This document shows, one piece after another, positions 7,581 to 63,736 of a stretch of 64,000 nucleotides of DNA; within the stretch, counting starts at the first letter, position 1, and each line of letters begins with the position of its first letter. This DNA comes from a virus (taxonomy: Duplodnaviria > Heunggongvirae > Uroviricota > Caudoviricetes). The stretch spans positions 253,368 to 317,367 of IMG/VR virus record IMGVR_UViG_3300042009_000026. The stretch is one strand, 5' to 3'. The notes below the pieces were generated by a model, which saw only the letters and a list, made by a program, of their open reading frames with translations, had not been told where the DNA came from and did no database searches. The position numbers were made by a program, and so were the translations under genes.

Positions 7581-8144
7581 ATGTCTTATCTGAATCCGAA
7601 TAAACTTAAAGCTTTCATGGCCAGCCTGGAAGATAGCGATGGTGTAGCGCGTCAAGTAGACGTTACCAATGCTAGTGCTTCAGCAACCAAAGATCATCCT
7701 GCCTCACCAGAAGCAGAAGCTAACTCTAATGGTGAAGCAGCTACTGCTGCCGATACCGTGAAGGTTGGTGATGGCGACGGCGTTACTCCAACTATTCAAG
7801 ACGCCATCAATGCAGGTGTACAAGTTGGTGAAGACATCACTAAGATGGAAGAAGCCAAAGCAGCTTGTGAACATCACATTGGTGAAGTAGCTAACTACAT
7901 CGACCGTAATGAATCTGTTCCACCATCGTTGGCTGAAGTAATCAAAGTAAGCTTGGCTCGTCATGACCGCAAGTTCTTTGCTCAGACTGTTCCAGCACTG
8001 GAAGCTTTCTCAGCACACACTGGTCGTATGACTACTTCCATTGATCTGTTGAAACGACTGAAGTCTGGCGTTGATACCATCAGCCGTGGTCTGGATGCAG
8101 CCCGCGAACAAAAAGCTCGACTGGAGGCAATTGCACATGGCTAA
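7581..8144 (+). CDS. Inner-head protein family member (propeptide module only)
   Basis: SD GGAG; ASLE and PALE sites; shares the LAEVIKVSL..HDRKFF..VPALE.F block with ORFs 8137 and 9075. Confidence 0.75.
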   Translation: MSYLNPNKLKAFMASLEDSDGVARQVDVTNASASATKDHPASPEAEANSNGEAATAADTVKVGDGDGVTPTIQDAINAGVQVGEDITKMEEAKAACEHHIGEVANYIDRNESVPPSLAEVIKVSLARHDRKFFAQTVPALEAFSAHTGRMTTSIDLLKRLKSGVDTISRGLDAAREQKARLEAIAHG

Positions 8145-8673
8145 GGTAAAACTTTCTAAACTGTTGCCTTCATTGGAATCGGAAGACGGTACCGCGGAAG
8201 TAGTAGAAGCTAAAGAAGTTAGTGCTGAACTGGGCAAAGCCGAAGTTCAACAAGTAGCTGACGATGGTTCGGGTAAAGGCGACGTAGCTGAAGCTGCTCA
8301 AGAAGTAGAAGTTGATGGCAAGGATTATACCGCTATCGATGAAGCTTCTAAACGTCAAGGTGAGATCATTCACAAGCAACTCGAACGTCTACAGGAAACC
8401 GAAGTATCAGTTGAAGCGTATATCGGTGTATTGCATACAGCTGCCGCTGCCAGTGATACTATTGGTTCTGGTGCTGCAGCAGTTATCAAATACGATCTGA
8501 CTTCGCGTTATCCAAAATTCTTTAGTAAGGTTGTTCCATCTGTAGAGTCTTTCGATGGTGAACATGGTCCTGCTCGTACTACTCGACTAGAACGGGTCCT
8601 GCTTGGTAAACTGGGCGAGATCAAAACCAGTATTGCTAAGAAACAAGAACAGTTGACAAAGCTAAAAAAGTAG
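8137..8673 (+). CDS. Inner-head protein family member ending in a -1 slippery site
   Basis: ATG 8137 with GGAGG SD; PSLE, VSVE, PSVE sites; ends CTA AAA AAG TAG. Confidence 0.75.
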   Translation: MAKVKLSKLLPSLESEDGTAEVVEAKEVSAELGKAEVQQVADDGSGKGDVAEAAQEVEVDGKDYTAIDEASKRQGEIIHKQLERLQETEVSVEAYIGVLHTAAAASDTIGSGAAAVIKYDLTSRYPKFFSKVVPSVESFDGEHGPARTTRLERVLLGKLGEIKTSIAKKQEQLTKLKK

Positions 8674-8690
8674 CAGTCTCGAAAGAGACT
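8664..8690 (+). other. Predicted programmed -1 frameshift signal (A_AAA_AAG plus GNRA hairpin)
   Basis: In-frame heptamer 8664-8670, 4-nt spacer, AGTCTC-GAAA-GAGACT at 8675-8690; -1 frame open 8640-9008. Confidence 0.75.
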
Positions 8691-9008
8691 TATCTAGAAG
8701 GTCCTGATAGTACGTTCACGCATCAAGGTAAAACCTACAGCGTAGATCGGTTGTTAGAACTAACCCGTGATCTCCCAGTTGTTCAATTCGACATTACTGA
8801 ACTCGGATGGATGATCGATGATGATTACGATTTAAAAAGAATGAAGGCTGCCGATACGTCGGTTCCTATTTGTGTCTATCAACTACCGAAGTCTGGGGCT
8901 TGGGTAACAATGGATGGTTATCATCGTGTTATCAAAGCACTCTACGTTGAGAAGCGTAAAACGATACCAGCCAAGATTGTTACAGAACAGCTACGTAAAC
9001 AGCTTTAA
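8670..9008 (+). CDS. ParB/Sulfiredoxin-like domain, probably the -1 frameshift extension of ORF 8137
   Basis: PICV...WVTMDGYHRV.KA motif; frame open from 8640 with no ATG/GTG/TTG before TTG 8751, which lacks a clear SD. Confidence 0.7.
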   Translation, partial: VAVSKETYLEGPDSTFTHQGKTYSVDRLLELTRDLPVVQFDITELGWMIDDDYDLKRMKAADTSVPICVYQLPKSGAWVTMDGYHRVIKALYVEKRKTIPAKIVTEQLRKQL

Positions 9009-9019
9009 CTAAATCATTC

Positions 9020-9047
9020 GGTTGGTGCCTCTGGTACCAACCTTATG
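9020..9047 (+). terminator. Hairpin followed by TATG (possible late promoter for ORF 9075)
   Basis: GGTTGGTGCC-TCT-GGTACCAACC-T-TATG. Confidence 0.55.
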
Positions 9048-21200: not shown

Positions 21201-22031
21201 TTACGACATGTAGCGAGGGCGCCGAGTAGCTGGACGACGTTCCCAACCCAGATTAGTAATCAGGTCAGATACATCGAGATGGCTAGCAGATTCCAAACCT
21301 TGAGCTTTACGCTTCTCAGCTTCATCTTGCAAGGCCCACAGAGTAGTCGGGTTAATCGTCATTTCTGTTTCAGCGAATGATTCTAGTGCAGGAGAGTTGT
21401 GCTTACCCGCTACATAGATACCACCTTCACCAACGAAGTCCCAGGTAGAGATTTCACGAGTGTACTTAATACCACGCATTACATCGTCTTGGGTAATCGA
21501 ACGTACTGAGCAATAAGTGTTGATGTGTGGATTGGTAATAGATGCTTCGAACTCTTTAGCGAAAGGACCGTAAGGTTTAACTTCAGCAATAACGAGTTTG
21601 CAAGGACGACCATTCTCATCTCGGCCATCGACAATAGTCAATGCACGGATGTGTGCGCAAACACGATCATCATCGATCTTACGGATACGACCCAGGTATT
21701 CCCGATCGTCCATATAGCGTTTGCATTTCTCACCATCTTTCAGAACCCATTCCCAAGGCTCAGGGTGTTTGAATTCCATGTACAGCACTTGCTTGAGCAA
21801 GCGGCGCATTAATGGAGAACCAGGTGTAAACATTGATACACCTGATGCGGCATCATAAAACATACCGGCAGAGTTTTGGGTGCCATAAGCGCCAACGCAG
21901 AGAGTGTAATACCCATCTGCGTCAGGAGTCAGGATGCCTTTCTTACCACCGGCAGTCAGAAGACTACCGCTAATACGTACTTGGTTACCGGCTTGCTTCT
22001 GGACACCAAAGTAATCTTGAGCTGTGCTCAT
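21201..22031 (-). CDS. Prohead (head maturation) serine protease (phiKZ gp175-like)
   Basis: EFKHP (His), YCSVRS (Ser), TWDFV (Asp) motifs; C-terminal ALE/GLE self-cleavage sites. Confidence 0.85.
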   Translation of the reverse strand: MSTAQDYFGVQKQAGNQVRISGSLLTAGGKKGILTPDADGYYTLCVGAYGTQNSAGMFYDAASGVSMFTPGSPLMRRLLKQVLYMEFKHPEPWEWVLKDGEKCKRYMDDREYLGRIRKIDDDRVCAHIRALTIVDGRDENGRPCKLVIAEVKPYGPFAKEFEASITNPHINTYCSVRSITQDDVMRGIKYTREISTWDFVGEGGIYVAGKHNSPALESFAETEMTINPTTLWALQDEAEKRKAQGLESASHLDVSDLITNLGWERRPATRRPRYMS

Positions 22032-22042
22032 AATGGTGTTCC

Positions 22043-22756
22043 TTACGTACGAAGAATTTCTTCAATCAGTTCTACAGACTCACTCGGGTTAACTACCGCT
22101 GTGTTGATAGCGTCAGCAAAGTAAGCACCGTTCAATCGGCTAGTGGTATCGGAGGTGTTCCAAACTACAGAGCGGAAAGGAATAACTTTAGGTGGGTTGG
22201 TGACAACATCCGAATGGTTATTCAGAATGTGTCGGTACAGTCGTGTCAGGTCGTCTTTATCACGAGCAGTTGTCGAGATAATCAGTTCCAAGATCGCACG
22301 TGAACCCAAGTTAACACCAGCATGCAGCGAAGCAGTGTCAAACATCTTGGCCATGTCGTAATAGTTCATGTACCACGGAATGTTCCCTTTAGCGACTAGT
22401 TCATCGTAAAGGTAATAAGTCAGTGTATCGTTCACTACGAGTTGGTTGTTCACAAATACCACATCACCAGGTTCAAAAGAGAACTCAAAGTAATCAGTAC
22501 CACGAACTGTAACTTTCTTAGTCGAGCTTGGACGGATCTGCATCATTGCAATTGTGTTATCAACACCGTAATATTGGTCATTCACAATGAGAGCATAGAA
22601 CCCAACGATAAAAACTTCAGAACCTAGGATCGCTAGGTCCTTATTCTGAAATCGTACAGGCACATGAATCTTAACAGGAGCATCTGTAACAGTGCTCCCA
22701 TTCTCTTGTAGATGTAGGTGTTGGAACACACGCTTTGCATCGCGTGTTAACTCCAT
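22043..22756 (-). CDS. Conserved phiKZ-like protein (gp176-like)
   Basis: 237 aa, SD AAGGGGA; synteny. Confidence 0.7.
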   Translation of the reverse strand: MELTRDAKRVFQHLHLQENGSTVTDAPVKIHVPVRFQNKDLAILGSEVFIVGFYALIVNDQYYGVDNTIAMMQIRPSSTKKVTVRGTDYFEFSFEPGDVVFVNNQLVVNDTLTYYLYDELVAKGNIPWYMNYYDMAKMFDTASLHAGVNLGSRAILELIISTTARDKDDLTRLYRHILNNHSDVVTNPPKVIPFRSVVWNTSDTTSRLNGAYFADAINTAVVNPSESVELIEEILRT

Positions 22757-23028
22757 TACTTGGTCCCCTTGATCTCTTTCTCAACCTTAGCTAAGTCAGC
22801 CTTAAATTGTTTCAGTGCTTCCGCAAGATCTTCCTCATCGGAGAGATACCAGGATTCACAGATACGATCATAAGCTTTCTCTTTCTTAGCATCACCATTG
22901 GTAGACGCATTCAGTACTTCCATGCGTGCAATCAATGGCTCCATTTCTTTAGGATACTTAGAAGCGAGGTTACGTACACGGGTTGACTGGCAACCCGCTT
23001 TATGAATACGTTGATCAAGGGTTAACGC
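22756..23028 (-). CDS. 90-aa domain, probable -1 frameshift extension of ORF 24647 (track calls 62 aa from ATG 22944)
   Basis: Frame open from 23049 to stop at 22756; entered through G_GGA_AAG; ATG 22944 has no clear SD. Confidence 0.6.
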   Translation of the reverse strand, partial: ALTLDQRIHKAGCQSTRVRNLASKYPKEMEPLIARMEVLNASTNGDAKKEKAYDRICESWYLSDEEDLAEALKQFKADLAKVEKEIKGTK

Positions 23029-24647
23029 TTTCCCGAGTGTGCCTCGAGACTAGCATCAGTATCTTCGTCTTCAGCATCCAGTTCATCGGCTTCATCAGTC
23101 TCTTCGACCAAAGGACCTTCACCGGTAGCTGCATCAGCGATAGCGCCTTCTGCTTCACCACCTGTAGGCTCCTCTAGTGCTGCTGGAGCTTGTTCGATAA
23201 CTTCAGGCTTGAACCGTTCGACTTGGATCTGACTGGCTGCCCAGACAGCGTACAGAGAGAACAGTGCGTTAGTGGACAGTTCACGACGAGAAGCTTCAGG
23301 AGCTTCTTGGCCAGCCTTATCCATCAGTTGCATATATTCCCAGTAAGTAGATTCAGGGAAGTAGATACGGCAGATCAGTTGACCGAAAGCAACGAACTCA
23401 TTGCACAGTTGTTCTGGACGAACAGCACGGATAGCATCAACGACTTTATCACGCAGACCATCTACTTGCATTTCAGCAAGAGTACCTTGACCAGCTTGAT
23501 TAACGAATGCTTCGATCATGTCTTGACGACGGGAACGTTCAGCATTGTCAGTAGCAGCTTGTTGGATCAGTGGATAGATAGCTTGGAACTTCTGAATGAA
23601 GTAGACCTTACGCTCTTCTAGTCGAGCTATGGTTTGGCTACCACTGTTTTCCAGAGCAGAACCCAGGACAGCAGACAGGTCGCCATTAGCAGCACGCCAT
23701 TGTGGTTCAACGTCACCATTCAGCCATACCACTAGACGACGGTTCTCGATTGCATTAGCTGCTTCAGCGCGGAGTACCAGCACGCCATTGCGCTGGTCTT
23801 CAGCACGACGCTGATAAGCACGCAACAGATAAGCACCAATCATCTCGTGAAGCATACGCATCACATGCATCCATTCTTCGTAGCCTACATTCATCTCGCC
23901 TACTGGTTCGCATGGGTTCTCACCCAGGTGACCACACAGGAAGTATGCCAGCAACAGACCATCAATGTTGAAAGGAGCATTAGTCCCAACAACGAAAGAA
24001 AGTTCACCAACAGTAAGAGCTTTGTTACGATTGAACAAGTCAGCATAAGTACGGCTGATGACTTCTGGATCTACACCCAGCAACCATTCGGTAATTTGTT
24101 CACGTTCAGCATGTGGGTTATTGATCGAGACCATTTCGATGATCTGTTCAACACCTTGAGCTGGGAGAATAAATGTACGGTATTGAGGTTGTGGATTTAC
24201 GTTTGCATAGTTCTGCAAATGAGAAGTCAAACGTGGTTCCGAATGGATAGCATTGTAACGGAAGATGTCAGCACGAATATCAGCAGAAGTAGAAGCTTGC
24301 TGACGTTCATTGAAGTCACGTACCATCGAGTCAATACCCGGAATAACAACGTTGGCTACATTGTACTGGATCTTACCCAGAGCAGCAGCAACCAGACTGA
24401 CCATATCCTTGTTGTCTTCTTCGACAGTGATAGGTTGTTCTTCGTTCATTTCGGTAAAGTGATCTTCAACCGATGCAACGAGTTCATCGGATACTTCTGG
24501 ACCGGCGGTAGGTTCATCTACAGCATAGCCGCTTGCGAACTGAGCAACAGGAAACTCAGGATTCGGAACGACCAGCACTTGACTCGATTCAGTCAGTTGT
24601 TGTGCAATCAGTTTTACAGACTGCACGGTGTTGGCGATATCAGACAT
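23022..24647 (-). CDS. Head-associated protein (phiKZ gp177-like) with acidic C-terminal tail
   Basis: ATG 24647 with AAAGGA SD; ASVE, AALE, ASLE protease-type motifs; synteny. Confidence 0.7.
   Translation of the reverse strand: MSDIANTVQSVKLIAQQLTESSQVLVVPNPEFPVAQFASGYAVDEPTAGPEVSDELVASVEDHFTEMNEEQPITVEEDNKDMVSLVAAALGKIQYNVANVVIPGIDSMVRDFNERQQASTSADIRADIFRYNAIHSEPRLTSHLQNYANVNPQPQYRTFILPAQGVEQIIEMVSINNPHAEREQITEWLLGVDPEVISRTYADLFNRNKALTVGELSFVVGTNAPFNIDGLLLAYFLCGHLGENPCEPVGEMNVGYEEWMHVMRMLHEMIGAYLLRAYQRRAEDQRNGVLVLRAEAANAIENRRLVVWLNGDVEPQWRAANGDLSAVLGSALENSGSQTIARLEERKVYFIQKFQAIYPLIQQAATDNAERSRRQDMIEAFVNQAGQGTLAEMQVDGLRDKVVDAIRAVRPEQLCNEFVAFGQLICRIYFPESTYWEYMQLMDKAGQEAPEASRRELSTNALFSLYAVWAASQIQVERFKPEVIEQAPAALEEPTGGEAEGAIADAATGEGPLVEETDEADELDAEDEDTDASLEAHSGKR
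23028..23034 (-). other. Predicted -1 slippery heptamer G_GGA_AAG
   Basis: Zero frame TCG GGA AAG CGT TAA; same heptamer as the lambda G/GT frameshift. Confidence 0.65.
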
Positions 24648-24657
24648 GATGTTTCCT

Positions 24658-24855
24658 TTAGATTGCGAGTTGTTTAGCAATACGGGCAGCCAGGGCTTCC
24701 TGGATGTCTTGCTTAGTTAGGAATACCCCGTTCAATGTGGACGAAGTATGTTCGGTGCCGAGGATGCGCAGAATTGCTTCTGCGCCCAGTTCGACAGCGG
24801 CAGACAGAATCGAAAGATTCTGCCCGTGTGCGACGTTGTTACTTAGATTTTGCAT
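24658..24855 (-). CDS. Small hypothetical protein
   Basis: ATG 24855 with GAGGA SD, overlapping the RNAP beta end. Confidence 0.6.
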   Translation of the reverse strand: MQNLSNNVAHGQNLSILSAAVELGAEAILRILGTEHTSSTLNGVFLTKQDIQEALAARIAKQLAI

Positions 24856-56821: not shown

Positions 56822-57955
56822 ATGTTATTCAAGATGGGTGAAACTTTCATACACACTGTTACGGTATTGCGTTTTGTTGATGGTTCGATGGCTATCGATC
56901 GCGCTACACACGAAGAAGCCAAGCAAGTCGCCAAGTGGTTTGAAGAAGGCGTGTTGTCCTTCGATGTAGCGAATAAGATGTTTGTTATCAATAGCACCGG
57001 TTCTACCAAGATGCTTGGTACAAATATCAACGTCACCTATATCACATGGCATCGCACCAACCTGGTTCCATTCTTCGGTACTCGTGACGTCGGCGAAGAT
57101 ACAGGCTTTACACCGATGTGCAGCCCATTGACTGCAGTTTATTCATTGTTGGACGGTAAACTAGCTTACGAAGGTCCACGTGTTTGTGATCATCGGTATG
57201 AAGATTGGATGCTGAATAATTTCGCAACGCGTCCTAATCCAGATGCCATTCCTTCTATTCCAGAAGAACTGGACGTAGAAAAGGATGAACAACCCAAGAT
57301 TGTTGAAAAGAACTGGCCTTCGTTCATGCCTAATGGCGTGTACAACCGTGAACTACACATTGCAAACTGTAATGAATTGGCCCAAATGTACCCAACATCT
57401 GTACGCGCAGTGTCCCCGTTTGAAGATAAAGGACATGTTGATGAAGACGGTTTAGCTGTTCGGCGGAAGGATACAGTTGAAGCATTCAGGGCATTAATCA
57501 GGGAACACTGTAGTAGTAACTGGTTAGATAACCTGTTTGGTGGTTGGACATTTTATCCTTGGGCTAAAAAGGAACCTGAACCAGATCCTATTTCCAAGCA
57601 AATGCTGAAAGCCCATGAACCTGAGCATTTGGTTGAGATCATTGATCCGCGTGATGAACTAGTGCAACCGTCATTCAAGCAATTCGCGATACTCGATTCG
57701 ATGGTTAGTCGTTACGTTACATTGATCAAGACCCAGAGAGATTCTCTTAGCTTTGAACTCGATCGGTTTGGTAATAAGACTAGCCTAGCACATCTGTTGA
57801 CCATGCTGGGTACAGTCAATGATCGTGAAGTTAAAATGACTATCGGTAAGCGGCAGCGTTGGTTGGGTTATGTGCAAGGTATGTTGGTGGCACACCAGCT
57901 TATTGGTGTTGATACAGAACGTGATGCCACTCGTGAGATATTGAACGGCCAATAA
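56822..57955 (+). CDS. Hypothetical protein
   Basis: SD TAGGAG; C-terminal KRQRWLGYVQG motif. Confidence 0.7.
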   Translation: MLFKMGETFIHTVTVLRFVDGSMAIDRATHEEAKQVAKWFEEGVLSFDVANKMFVINSTGSTKMLGTNINVTYITWHRTNLVPFFGTRDVGEDTGFTPMCSPLTAVYSLLDGKLAYEGPRVCDHRYEDWMLNNFATRPNPDAIPSIPEELDVEKDEQPKIVEKNWPSFMPNGVYNRELHIANCNELAQMYPTSVRAVSPFEDKGHVDEDGLAVRRKDTVEAFRALIREHCSSNWLDNLFGGWTFYPWAKKEPEPDPISKQMLKAHEPEHLVEIIDPRDELVQPSFKQFAILDSMVSRYVTLIKTQRDSLSFELDRFGNKTSLAHLLTMLGTVNDREVKMTIGKRQRWLGYVQGMLVAHQLIGVDTERDATREILNGQ

Positions 57956-57994
57956 TGTGTAAGGTACATCGGGTATCTTCAATAAAGGAATGTA

Positions 57995-58312
57995 ATGATG
58001 AGTGAATTTGATACAGAACCCCATGGTGCAGGTAGCGGTGATCTCCCAGATATCGTAACCCCAGAAATTTTCATGGATCGTTATACGCATAACCAAGCGT
58101 TCTACGGTATCATGAAAATTGAAGCAGCTTTGGAAGATGCTAAGCCATTGCCTTCAGTGGTGGGTAGTTACGTAGAGGTCAGAGTATCGGCTATCTTTAA
58201 TGGCCGTGTGGGTGACATCATCAAACAACAATATCTGGATAAAGGTTGGGCAACCATTACTCTTATTGAAGTAGATGCAACCACTACCGCTGTTAAGCTC
58301 GTCTTCCCTTAA
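57995..58312 (+). CDS. Hypothetical protein
   Basis: SD AAAGGA. Confidence 0.65.
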   Translation: MMSEFDTEPHGAGSGDLPDIVTPEIFMDRYTHNQAFYGIMKIEAALEDAKPLPSVVGSYVEVRVSAIFNGRVGDIIKQQYLDKGWATITLIEVDATTTAVKLVFP

Positions 58313-58959
58313 TGCATGTAGGGGTGGTGGCGGGAGTTGGTTCTCGTACAGTTCCAGAATGGGCATTAGAGCTCATAATCCGGTTGGGTCGTACCTATAC
58401 GGATCTAGGTTATCAAATGTCATCAGGGGACGCATGGGACTCGGACCGTGCGTTCCTTTATGGCGCTGCACAGTCACACCGATACCAAGAGATTGGCGCC
58501 AGAGTCTTTCTAGCGAAGGACGGAGCTAACGGTAGATGGATTAAAGACAATCCATTTTACTACGACGGAACAACCGTAGATGCAACTACCATGGCAACTG
58601 CGCAATCAATGGCCGCCTTAGCACGTGGTGGTTTCTACGGATTAAATCCACACGGAATTGCTCTACATACCCGTAATGTGTTTCAGATTCATGGCATGGG
58701 GTTAGATGAGCTTGTAGGTGCCATCTACTTCTATGCCGAGCCTAATGGACGAACCAAGGTCCATGGTGGAACTAATACTGCGTTGCAACTCTGTAAAAAA
58801 GCCGGTGTACCTATAATCAAGAACCTGTATTATCAGGAGATTGTGGATGAAATAACTGAATGGCTTAATACCCATGAGTTGGATTATCCCTACATCGATA
58901 TTGATTGGCACCAAATACACAAACCCAATGATCCCCGTTTAAAGGAATTTGAAGAATGA
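58312..58959 (+). CDS. SLOG/DprA-like nucleotide-binding protein
   Basis: AGVGSR, SSGDA..SD, RN..QI.G, GGT..A motifs. Confidence 0.7.
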   Translation: MHVGVVAGVGSRTVPEWALELIIRLGRTYTDLGYQMSSGDAWDSDRAFLYGAAQSHRYQEIGARVFLAKDGANGRWIKDNPFYYDGTTVDATTMATAQSMAALARGGFYGLNPHGIALHTRNVFQIHGMGLDELVGAIYFYAEPNGRTKVHGGTNTALQLCKKAGVPIIKNLYYQEIVDEITEWLNTHELDYPYIDIDWHQIHKPNDPRLKEFEE

Positions 58960-59579
58960 CACTGTGGCAACGTATTAAAAGCTGGTTCGGTTTCAAACCA
59001 AAAGCGGCACCATCGCAATTTGGTAGTAGCTATGACTTCCATGATAACATGGGTTTCAGTTCTGGTACGCAGGGTATTCGTAATGCCTCTACCAAGGATC
59101 AACCAGCAACCGAAAAGAACGGGGTGTTCGTCAAAGACGGTATTCTGTCAGCTGGCTCCCAACGAGACAATTGGGTCGATAAAAAATCAGTTCGTCGTAA
59201 TACGCCTATTCGCTCTTATGGAGAATCAGAATGTCGTTATGACCATGGTGCCAGGATTGGTGGTGTTACTACATCCTCTCTTCGTCCCGATGGTAGTTTC
59301 GTTGATGGTCTAGTGACGGGCTACATGGTCGGCGAAGTACTGGAAGCAGTTGGTGACATGATCTCCGATGACCATACACCAAGTGTCACAGAAACTCGTT
59401 CTGCACCTGAACCAGTATGGCAAGAGCCAGCCCCTGTGGTTGATGTACAATCCACTTGGCAAGAACCCGCTTCTACTAGCTGGAATGAACCAGCCTCTAC
59501 CAGTTTCGGCGGCAGTGACAATAGCAGTAGTTGGGTCAGCGACGTAGCTGATTCTGTAAGTTCTGTCTTCTCCGACTGA
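58956..59579 (+). CDS. Hypothetical protein with WQEPA repeats and Ser/Asp-rich tail
   Basis: ATGA coupling; WQEPA twice, WNEPA once. Confidence 0.65.
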   Translation: MTLWQRIKSWFGFKPKAAPSQFGSSYDFHDNMGFSSGTQGIRNASTKDQPATEKNGVFVKDGILSAGSQRDNWVDKKSVRRNTPIRSYGESECRYDHGARIGGVTTSSLRPDGSFVDGLVTGYMVGEVLEAVGDMISDDHTPSVTETRSAPEPVWQEPAPVVDVQSTWQEPASTSWNEPASTSFGGSDNSSSWVSDVADSVSSVFSD

Positions 59580-59580
59580 G

Positions 59581-59763
59581 GTGGCAATGAATAAAGGTTT
59601 TCGTAGACTGTATTCTAGTTTACATCGAACCGACCGTAAACGATCTGCACGACAACACGAGCTGGCTCCAAGCCAGCTTATGTCCGAGATACCCGGTTGG
59701 CGTAAATGCACCACAATCAAGCCCATGGAGGAATTAAATGTCCCAACTCGAAACGCTGCGTGA
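59581..59763 (+). CDS. Small hypothetical protein
   Basis: GAGG SD; likely start ATG 59587. Confidence 0.45.
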   Translation: MAMNKGFRRLYSSLHRTDRKRSARQHELAPSQLMSEIPGWRKCTTIKPMEELNVPTRNAA

Positions 59764-60487
59764 GCACATCGAGATCATGAAAAGCATGGCGCAGCCAGTG
59801 CGACATAATCCGATAATCATCGCTCCAAGGATATCACCCAGTGAGATGCTATATCTGCGTCGTACTGATGGCTCTTACGCTAGAGACGAACGTGGTTTTT
59901 TAATGCACGATCAGATGGCTACCTACAAAGCAAACAGATCCGCGACCCCTCCAGATTACTCATTGGACGATCTGAAGTTTACAGATTATGTGAAAGTGCT
60001 GACTGAACTCCCTGTGTCTGATTTCCCGAGACGTCAGATCCCAATGTCAAGGAGACGTAGCCCATATGAATCAGCCAAGTGGCAAGGATTCCGGTGGGGT
60101 GGTCGCACTAATGCTTCGGCAACAGAGTGGGCAATACGTCGCGCGATACAGAAAACCTTCCCTAAGGCTAAACCGTATCTGGTGAAGTCGCGCTATCCAA
60201 GAATGCTTCTTGGGAAGAGTATTGCCATGTCTAACCTTTGCCATGAATTGTTCGGCACTGGTAACTATTATGGACTGACCGTACAACAACGTAAACAACA
60301 GGAAATAATTGATGCTCGGTTCAATGTTGACTTTGTTCGACTATCCACCCAACTTGCTGCGTCCTATCCCCAGCTCCCAATCGACGGAAGATTTACACCG
60401 TCTTATGAAACGCTTGAGAAGTTTTACGTCCCGGAACAAAGTAGTGTTTATCACTCCACGGGCCACTGGGACAAAAGAAAGTACTGA
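59738..60487 (+). CDS. Hypothetical protein
   Basis: GGAGG SD. Confidence 0.65.
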   Translation: MSQLETLREHIEIMKSMAQPVRHNPIIIAPRISPSEMLYLRRTDGSYARDERGFLMHDQMATYKANRSATPPDYSLDDLKFTDYVKVLTELPVSDFPRRQIPMSRRRSPYESAKWQGFRWGGRTNASATEWAIRRAIQKTFPKAKPYLVKSRYPRMLLGKSIAMSNLCHELFGTGNYYGLTVQQRKQQEIIDARFNVDFVRLSTQLAASYPQLPIDGRFTPSYETLEKFYVPEQSSVYHSTGHWDKRKY

Positions 60488-60522
60488 CCGCTACAATGTA
60501 ATATCTAACCAGGAGTTTGACA

Positions 60523-61149
60523 ATGTCAGTACTATCAGACAAAACTATTCGCCGGCTGAGCGAAGAATCCAAGACACCAATGATTCAACCTTTCTTTGGT
60601 CGTTCAGTAAAGACACTAAACGGGCAGAAGGTAGCAAGTTACGGCTTGTCCACAGGCGGATACGACATCCGAGCAGCGAGGGAATTCAAGGTCTTCAAGC
60701 CTATCAAATATTCCCTATGGGAACGTTTGAAGTTTCTGTTCACAGGTAAACCGAAACCGGTTAATCCACTGAGCTATAAAGAAATCACTGAAGACATGTT
60801 CGATTCTGTCAATGGTGATTTCGTTGTAGTTCCTCCGGGTGGCTTCTTGCTGGCCCGTAGTATGGAATACGTCAACATGCCTCGTGATGTGTTGGCTCTG
60901 TGTATCGGTAAGTCAACTATCGCTCGTGCTGGTTGGAATTGCCTGTGCACTCCGATAGAACCTGAATGGGATGGTTATATCACTCTGGAATTCCAGAACA
61001 CAACTGATCGTCCGAATATCTTCTATGCTGGTGAAGGTTGCCTGCAATTGGTATTCATGCGTCTGGATAAAGAGCCTGAAACTTCCTACCTCGATCGTGG
61101 TGGCAAGTATAACAATCAAGCTGCAAGCATCGTTCTACCACGCGTATAA
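60523..61149 (+). CDS. dcd: dCTP deaminase
   Basis: SYGLSTGGYD, GKSTIARAG, PIEPEWDGYITLE, GEG..Q, Y..RGGKY..Q. Confidence 0.93.
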   Translation: MSVLSDKTIRRLSEESKTPMIQPFFGRSVKTLNGQKVASYGLSTGGYDIRAAREFKVFKPIKYSLWERLKFLFTGKPKPVNPLSYKEITEDMFDSVNGDFVVVPPGGFLLARSMEYVNMPRDVLALCIGKSTIARAGWNCLCTPIEPEWDGYITLEFQNTTDRPNIFYAGEGCLQLVFMRLDKEPETSYLDRGGKYNNQAASIVLPRV

Positions 61150-61150
61150 A

Positions 61151-61179
61151 AGTGAGCCTTCGGGCTCACTCTTTATTTT
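61151..61179 (+). terminator. Intrinsic terminator
   Basis: AGTGAGCC-TTCG-GGCTCACT-CTTTATTTT. Confidence 0.8.
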
Positions 61180-61194
61180 CTTTTTGGAGGTTTC

Positions 61195-63736
<2,542 letters not shown>

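Follow-up and report, generated by a model that had tools for sequence, protein, structure and literature searches.

How is a conserved protein domain produced when its reading frame offers no start codon of its own? This question is raised by a locus in a 64,000-nucleotide (nt) stretch of phage DNA (hereafter the window), which forms the end of a complete virus record of 317,367 bp bearing terminal repeats (IMG/VR record IMGVR_UViG_3300042009_000026). Here the open reading frame (ORF) that starts at position 8137, related to genes for internal head proteins (IHPs), ends in a slippery sequence beside its stop codon, and a small ParB/Srx-like domain follows in the -1 frame. The evidence points to a conserved programmed -1 frameshift on the final sense codon of the IHP gene, to which we assign a probability of about 85%. 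The DNA of the Pseudomonas syringae jumbo phages Psa21 and D6 is ~75% identical to the window, and phage RVTF4 is also related; all three are phiKZ-like, nucleus-forming phages. The comparison set comprises the window and 14 syntenic Psa21-like loci (15 in total): the three cultured, independently sequenced phages (Psa21, D6 and RVTF4; L001-L003), IMG/VR contigs L010-L012, Logan/ENA contigs L014, L016, L018 and L020, and metagenome contigs L025-L028.

The original prediction read the end of ORF 8137 as CTA AAA AAG TAG, with the heptamer A_AAA_AAG in phase, and direct reading of the sequence agrees (Table 1). A slip site stands in phase, at the stop codon or one codon ahead of it, in all 15 loci; it is NNA_AAG in 13 of them, A_AAA_AAA in L020 and G_GGG_AAG in L014. 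Slip codon and stop are adjacent in 13 loci; in L016 and L025 one codon stands between them. The C-terminal residues of the upstream protein are otherwise divergent, with a ratio of nonsynonymous to synonymous change (pN/pS) of 1.06, and the base preceding AAG is A at every A_AAG locus, across codons for Ala, Gly, Pro, Ser, Glu and Lys. Full X_XXY_YYZ heptamers are found in nine loci, as A_AAA_AAG, G_GGA_AAG, C_CCA_AAG or A_AAA_AAA, and their differing kinds imply repeated origin or maintenance. The two frames overlap from the upstream stop of the -1 frame to that of the 0 frame, a stretch of no more than 10-16 nt in L010, L003 and L012, which pins the shift to the slip codon. A_AAG, A_AAA_AAG, G_GGA_AAG and C_CCA_AAG are the most shift-prone motifs reported in E. 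coli (PMC5009743). In the whole 317-kb genome, an in-phase X_XXY_YYZ abuts the stop in two of 418 ORFs of at least 100 amino acids, and only ORF 8137 of those two opens into a long -1 frame (112 codons). The sequence AAAAAAG is itself rarer than expected in the window (6 observed, 12.8 +/- 3.3 expected). By these counts and by its conservation, the arrangement exceeds what chance would produce.

Downstream of the slip site, the -1 frame is conserved as protein. Codon reading confirmed the earlier claim that this frame is open in the window from 8640 to 9008 (P0001, which reads ...KKVAVSKETYLEGPDSTFTHQGKTYSVDRLLELT...DGYHR...) and that its first canonical start is TTG 8751. No ATG, GTG, TTG, CTG or ATH codon occurs in the -1 frame of the window from 8640 to the conserved His codon, and no start codon from that His codon to TTG 8751 (CAA GGT AAA ACC TAC AGC GTA GAT CGG). 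Past the slip site, all 15 loci encode in the -1 frame the pattern [V/I]-x-x-S-x-E-[A/T/V/E/D/M]-Y-x-E-G-P-D-S-T-F-T-H. The annotations of Psa21, D6 and RVTF4 begin the small gene at an ATG (within H-M-G-K-T-Y) ~50 nt past the upstream stop, and no ATG, GTG or TTG comes ahead of it in that frame. The 12 codons ahead of this ATG (AY..TH) have a pN/pS of 0.07 in the -1 frame, versus 3.6 and 2.7 in the other frames, a translation-type selection on transframe codons; the domain body has a pN/pS of 0.31. As judged from these comparisons, recoding appears to be the sole way to make the complete ParB/Srx-like protein in the window phage and its 14 relatives. The sizes originally given for the predicted products (178 and 290 amino acids, the latter releasing 106) are arithmetically correct.

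The small ORF might instead be an ordinary separate gene, beginning at TTG 8751 (85 amino acids), at ATG 8811 (65 amino acids) or at the H-M-G ATG of the relatives, with the slippery ending of the upstream gene being incidental. It is annotated as such in Psa21, D6 and RVTF4, the gene call of this genome gives the 65-residue version, and free-standing homologs of 110-125 amino acids are the commonest form of the family. We consider this explanation improbable. The proposed starts lack a Shine-Dalgarno (SD) sequence, the annotated ATG in every locus: SD pairing energies are +0.4 to -3.3 kcal/mol for this ATG, versus -3.2 to -9.3 kcal/mol for real window starts. Nor is the ATG kept throughout, its position being occupied by Gln in the window, L014, L016 and L025, and by Glu in L020. 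The separate products would miss strands 1 and 2, the invariant E4 and the near-invariant Y2; a start at TTG 8751, which would in addition remove Y17, is unlikely to be used. A separate gene would also leave unexplained the low pN/pS ahead of the ATG, the invariant S-x-E and the conserved NNA_AAG-stop arrangement.

The true free-standing homologs (L013, EL and Huxley) begin elsewhere, just before Y-x-E and behind a good SD sequence. In L013, a more distant relative which shares 66% identity and has a different gene context, the gene is free-standing and is preceded by AAGAGG-N7-ATG (-7.0 kcal/mol), with the N-terminus MSGSKTVYTEGSDSTF; the free-standing homologs in phages EL, Huxley and Xoo-sp14 start 1-5 residues ahead of Y-x-E. 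Of 425 family representatives, the 150 best align, with few exceptions, from the Tyr of Y-x-E onward. Conservation thus begins at YxEGPDSTF, upstream of TTG 8751, as the frameshift model had anticipated, and the competing view that this TTG is the real initiation site fails on its SD duplex (-0.1 kcal/mol) and on the loss of strands 1 and 2.

The -1 frame could also be a pseudogene in decay whose start is gone, or the second half of one continuous ORF broken by an assembly error in the A-run. The window does lack the ATG of the relatives, and the record is a metagenome assembly in which the break falls inside a run of six A's. Against both versions, which we regard as very unlikely, the frame is intact in all 15 loci with purifying pN/pS values in the body and in the extension alike, and the three cultured phages share the same -1 geometry with 11 further assemblies, all but one of these 14 having only 3-4 A's at the site. 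A sequencing indel, named in the original prediction as the outcome that would undo it, cannot explain the frame change because 14 independent relatives share the frame geometry. Transcriptional slippage was ruled out as a general mechanism by the same short A-runs (L020, with seven A's, is the exception).

Several observations weigh against the frameshift. The 15 loci belong to a single clade, so the counts of loci are not counts of independent events. Five loci have the minimal A_AAG alone, and L014 has G_GGG_AAG. The shiftiness of AAG in E. coli rests on a single tRNA-Lys(UUU), and no tRNA-Lys is found among the 10 tRNA genes in the whole phage genome (Thr, Cys, Ser, two Leu, Trp, Asn, Ile, Asp and His; genome positions 57763-63717), so that the slip codons are decoded by host tRNA-Lys. 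No SD-like stimulator is present in the 25 nt upstream of the heptamer in the window, and the hairpin downstream of it, considered as a clade-wide conserved stimulator, was rejected, as it is common only to the window and Psa21; with the hairpin unconserved and the upstream element missing, the efficiency of frameshifting may be low. Our literature search retrieved no virion proteome for the Psa21-like clade, the Psa21 and D6 papers being without virion mass spectrometry. Lastly, a start-like codon lies at or near the first residues of the domain in L020 (ATG), L016 and L025 (GTG) and L018 (ATG), and some independent initiation is possible in these four loci.

Such codons are what one would expect if ribosomes terminated and reinitiated, or used a non-canonical start beside the stop (GUA, or the ATG or GTG after S-x-E), giving a free protein with a short leader and no fusion. 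The stop overlaps the conserved -1 codons, which favours coupling, and reinitiation would account for -1-frame translation ahead of the annotated ATG as well. However, 11 of the 15 loci have no ATG, GTG or TTG near the stop, and GUA is not a known initiator. Reinitiation would leave the conserved third-position A of the penultimate codon and the nine full heptamers unexplained, and it is hard to see what a six-residue leader with S-x-E at its end would do without a targeting part. We therefore judge it a poor explanation of the locus, and frameshifting at the slip codon the better one.

The hairpin of the window is where the original prediction had placed it, with 6 bp closed by a GAAA loop and beginning 4 nt past the heptamer. 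The 30 nt after the stop have a minimum free energy of -8.0 kcal/mol (z = -2.6 versus shuffles). In Psa21 a 6-bp stem of different sequence (UGCCUC/GAGGCA) occupies the same register, and two of its pairs are compensatory relative to the window. RVTF4 has a weak stem, L014 and L020 have other stable stems at the site, and D6, L010, L012, L016 and L018 have no stem past the slip site. The stem in L014 and L020, within the 30 nt past the 0-frame stop, is 8 bp long and pairs CCUCU of the Ser-codon region with GAGGG of the Glu-Gly in Y-x-E-G (z of -4.4 and -3.3, respectively). L014 also has the weakest slip site of the set (G_GGG_AAG), and stem strength may compensate for heptamer quality in loci of this type. 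The alternative that the window hairpin is an intrinsic terminator was rejected: it scores as one on the minus strand only, where no gene converges, and does so because of the A-run. The 3' feature that is conserved across the loci is the adjacent 0-frame stop codon.

The label 'dnaX-type', given to the site originally, is therefore apt only in part. As in E. coli dnaX (tau/gamma), the heptamer is A_AAA_AAG and a stem-loop follows a few nt downstream (PMC5009743). Unlike dnaX, the window has no upstream SD-like stimulator, and its stem, set off by a 4-nt spacer and no longer than 6 bp, is unconserved in the relatives. In dnaX, shifted ribosomes terminate early and make the shorter product, whereas the shift in the window would bypass the adjacent stop and add a 112-residue extension; the two signals are not homologous. 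From its sequence, the site is better described as an A_AAG or heptamer 'shifty stop'. Minimal -1 sites of this kind are known from IS1222 (G_CGA_AAG), Bacillus cdd (A_CGA_AAG) and the lambda G-T gene pair (G_GGA_AAG) (PMC5009743). The core common to the 15 loci is likewise A_AAG, often within G_GGA_AAG or C_CCA_AAG and with the stop beside it. What differs is the gene context, the end of a jumbo-phage IHP gene, which is new for such sites; the adjacent stop may play a part in the shift.

Table 1. Positions of the features discussed (window coordinates) and slip-site endings of the compared loci.
Feature	Position	Strand	Remark
0-frame ORF, 178 amino acids	ATG 8137, stop TAG 8671-8673	+	N-terminal propeptide/targeting part of a phiKZ-type IHP
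Slippery heptamer A_AAA_AAG	8664-8670	+	In phase; A/AAA/AAG = Lys177, Lys178
0-frame stop TAG	8671-8673	+	Abuts the slip codon ('shifty stop' arrangement)
Transframe linker V-A-V-S-K-E	8670-8687	+	Predicted S-x-E prohead-protease site, cleavage after Glu
Hairpin AGUCUC-GAAA-GAGACU	8675-8690 (AGTCTC 8675-8680, GAAA 8681-8684, GAGACT 8685-8690)	+	Possible lineage-specific stimulator
ParB/Srx-like domain, 106 amino acids (TYLEGPDSTF...DGYHR...KQL), and stop	8688-9008	+	PHROG 17560, fold, profile
CAA (Gln)	8724-8726	+	Aligned with the annotated-start ATG of Psa21, D6 and RVTF4 (codon alignment)
TTG	8751-8753	+	First canonical -1-frame start; SD duplex -0.1 kcal/mol
Head maturation (prohead) protease gene	21201-22031	-	PHROG 3014 'head maturation protease', E 8e-80
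Ending A_AAA_AAG TAG			Window
Ending G_GGA_AAG TAA			D6, L018, L026
Ending G_GGA_AAG AAG TAA			L016, L025
Ending C_CCA_AAG TAA			RVTF4, L028
Ending A_AAA_AAA TAA			L020
Ending G_GGG_AAG TAA			L014
Ending with A_AAG TAA only			Psa21, L010, L011, L012, L027

What protein would the domain be fused to? ORF 8137 is 60% identical to the 468-residue internal head protein of D6, over residues 4-165 of the D6 protein, and 59% identical to Psa21 gp218, and it matches PHROG 8282 'internal head protein' (E 3e-7). A Pfam search of ORF 8137 gave no match, PF12699 (phiKZ_IP) included; this family is found in the orthologous upstream ORFs of L014, L016 and L018. By sequence comparison, ORF 8137 is an N-terminal fragment of a phiKZ_IP family member, which upholds the family originally named, an inner-head protein, and narrows it to the propeptide part, the only part present. 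Two protease-type motifs lie inside it, SLE-14 and SVE-137, the former comparable to SLE-13 of phiKZ gp93 (PMC5694885). The upstream IHP paralog ranges from 178 to 468 amino acids across the 15 loci, and from the alignments the carrier of the window and Psa21 is one from which the mature part of ~300 residues is gone, with essentially the propeptide remaining. We note that the window has two adjacent 'propeptide-only' IHP paralogs (7581-8144 and 8137-8673; 187 and 178 amino acids). Their counterparts in D6, RVTF4 and most metagenomic relatives are full-length genes of ~460 amino acids, and L018 has one short and one long; this distribution suggests a stepwise deletion of mature domains from the two paralogs.

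In the internal proteins of T4 and the IHPs of phiKZ, 201phi2-1 and SPN3US, the protein is steered into the prohead by an N-terminal propeptide, which the prohead protease cuts off after a Glu residue (PMC5694885, PMC10052503). In those proteins the cargo is in frame with the propeptide, whereas the cargo in the window would be reached only by recoding, and the carrier in the window and Psa21 has no mature domain of its own.

The linker between carrier and domain resembles such a processing site. Directly ahead of the domain, all 15 loci have [V/I]-x-x-S-x-E, with the Ser and Glu codons varying synonymously. The motif recognized by phiKZ-type prohead proteases is S/A/G-X-E (PMC5694885), and a gene for a protease of this class is encoded in the window. 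The similar motifs invoked by the original prediction, VAVSNE in ORF 9075 and VVSNE in ORF 1825 (there as AVVSNE), were both located in the window. The cleavage proposed at S-x-E just past the shift is supported as a prediction by the conservation of the site in 15 of 15 loci and by the presence of the protease gene. Among distant homologs with N-terminal extensions, [SAG]-x-E lies just ahead of the domain in 6 of 33, versus ~1 expected by our own estimate, a suggestive excess that we did not use in the argument.

The domain itself matches PHROG 17560 (E 4e-21). Searches of Pfam and NCBIfam with it returned no significant family, with no Pfam hit including ParB_N (PF02195), which one of 64 family members reaches at E 0.0034, and a single-sequence search of the PDB gave no match. 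In the alignment of 64 sequences, E4, D76, H79 and R80 are invariant, and Y2 and G77 are near-invariant, which gives the family signature Y-x-E-G...D-G-x-H-R. The family profile matches the ParB/Srx-fold kinase SbnI (E 3e-5), with D-G-x-H-R aligned to DGVHR of SbnI. In the AlphaFold (AF2) model, which has a mean predicted local distance difference test (pLDDT) score of 85.6, STFT forms strand 1 and KTYS strand 2. The 50 best PDB matches of this model in Foldseek are all Srx, ParB, Noc, KorB, PadC, SbnI, SerK or close ParB-like entries, with probabilities up to 1.0 and template modelling (TM) scores of 0.35-0.49. The modelled fold and the profile match together support the assignment as ParB/Srx-like that had been made from the letters alone. 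The activity of the domain may lie in NTP binding and possibly in nicking.

In other phages, virion proteins carry the same domain as an in-frame fusion. Gp343 of phage PA5oct, whose annotation is that of a structural protein identified by electrospray ionization tandem mass spectrometry (ESI-MS/MS), has the domain at its C-terminus, and so does an RNA-polymerase subunit of Ralstonia phage FLC4-3B, where the domain comes straight after A-V-E. The window homolog of this subunit adjoins the gene of the large polymerase beta-subunit in the head-gene cluster. We take these polymerase genes to correspond to the phiKZ virion-polymerase genes gp178 and gp180, with the FLC4-3B-type subunit at the gp180 position. 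Other in-frame fusions of the domain are with portal-InPase, ART-PolyVal, NUDIX and RNAP. A search for longer close homologs with an in-frame IHP-ParB fusion found none, which is weak evidence. The fusions with portal-InPase, ART-PolyVal, NUDIX and RNAP follow the 'polyvalent protein' pattern of effectors that are packaged and injected, ParB/Srx domains among them (Iyer et al. 2017, PMC5512222). The ParB/Srx domains of that pattern (e.g., DdrB-like ParB of phage P1) are linked to virion-packaged proteins, like the homologs of the window domain; unlike them, the window family has its own signature and no Pfam model.

Two further observations concern the domain and its surroundings. P0022, a metagenomic protein of 1401 amino acids, contains ~15 tandem matches to the ParB/Srx-like domain, an unusual architecture for the family. 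Directly past the stop of the small ORF lies a strong GC-rich stem-loop, GGTTGGTGCC-TCT-GGTACCAACC (9021-9043), which is kept in Psa21, D6 and RVTF4 (ggttggtgcc/ggttggtacc); this intergenic hairpin probably marks a transcript end or serves in processing.

Joined together, these parts define a path from slip to delivery. With AAG in the P site and TAG in the A site, tRNA-Lys would move back by one base and pair with AAA; the slip could be a tandem one on the A_AAA_AAG of the window, where the hairpin might help. A minority of ribosomes would go on in the -1 frame and yield a 290-residue protein composed of the head-targeting propeptide, VAVSKE and the ParB/Srx-fold domain of 106 residues. The IHP part would carry the fusion into the prohead, where the prohead protease would cut after S-x-E and free the domain inside the capsid, and the freed domain would probably be ejected along with the DNA. 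Resting as it does on sequence comparison, the full model of frameshift, packaging and cleavage is in our estimation quite likely. No account of a frameshift in IHP genes of phiKZ-like phages, nor of ParB in the inner body, was found in our search of the literature.

The logic would resemble that of retroviral and totiviral Gag-Pol, in which a low-frequency -1 shift at the end of a gene for the capsid interior appends an enzyme that is co-packaged in a fixed ratio and released by a protease (PMC5009743). In the window, the packaging and the cleavage are predicted. The setting also differs from Gag-Pol, being a double-stranded DNA tailed phage with an unrelated carrier (the phiKZ_IP propeptide), an unrelated cargo (ParB/Srx) and an unrelated protease (T4 gp21/phiKZ gp175 type, S/A/G-x-E).

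A second candidate -1 site occurs in the window on the minus strand (22756-23060). There a gp177-like head gene (24680..23022) ends in D-A-S-L-E-A-H-S-G-K-R*, with the heptamer G_GGA_AAG at 23034-23028 (-), one codon ahead of the stop. The -1 frame has 92 codons (P0170), and the virion gene that follows begins with an ATG overlapping its stop. Psa21 (L023:340-700) has the identical heptamer, after S-T-E, and the first 21 transframe residues are the same as in the window; DNA identity between the two is 84% in the first 33 codons and 67% beyond. An 8-bp stem (-11.5 kcal/mol) follows. The Psa21 annotation of this frame is limited to a 60-residue ORF, and the window has TTG in place of its ATG start. 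The design recurs here, with G_GGA_AAG coming after S-L-E, and may point to a general way to load low-copy ejection proteins.

More broadly, the Psa21 group might use a Gag-Pol-like recoding, in which a slip at a stop codon doses a packaged, protease-released and injected ParB/Srx-type enzyme, the carrier in the window and Psa21 having become a pure targeting propeptide for cargo delivery, and the second site hinting at a general 'frameshift, package, cleave' loading of low-copy ejection proteins; we hold this tentatively, at slightly less than even odds. If true, a recoding event has been missed by all annotations of the Psa21 group, for which databases list truncated 'hypothetical proteins' of 65-98 amino acids, and this would be the first case found of a tailed phage packaging a non-structural enzyme by the Gag-Pol strategy. 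It would also identify a ParB/Srx-fold protein that is likely ejected by nucleus-forming jumbo phages, in which the opening minutes of infection are being actively studied. The natural series of slip sites, from A_AAG alone to several kinds of heptamer, with and without hairpins, may serve to examine how frameshift efficiency is tuned beside a stop codon, and the 178-residue propeptide is a potential portable tag for capsid targeting.

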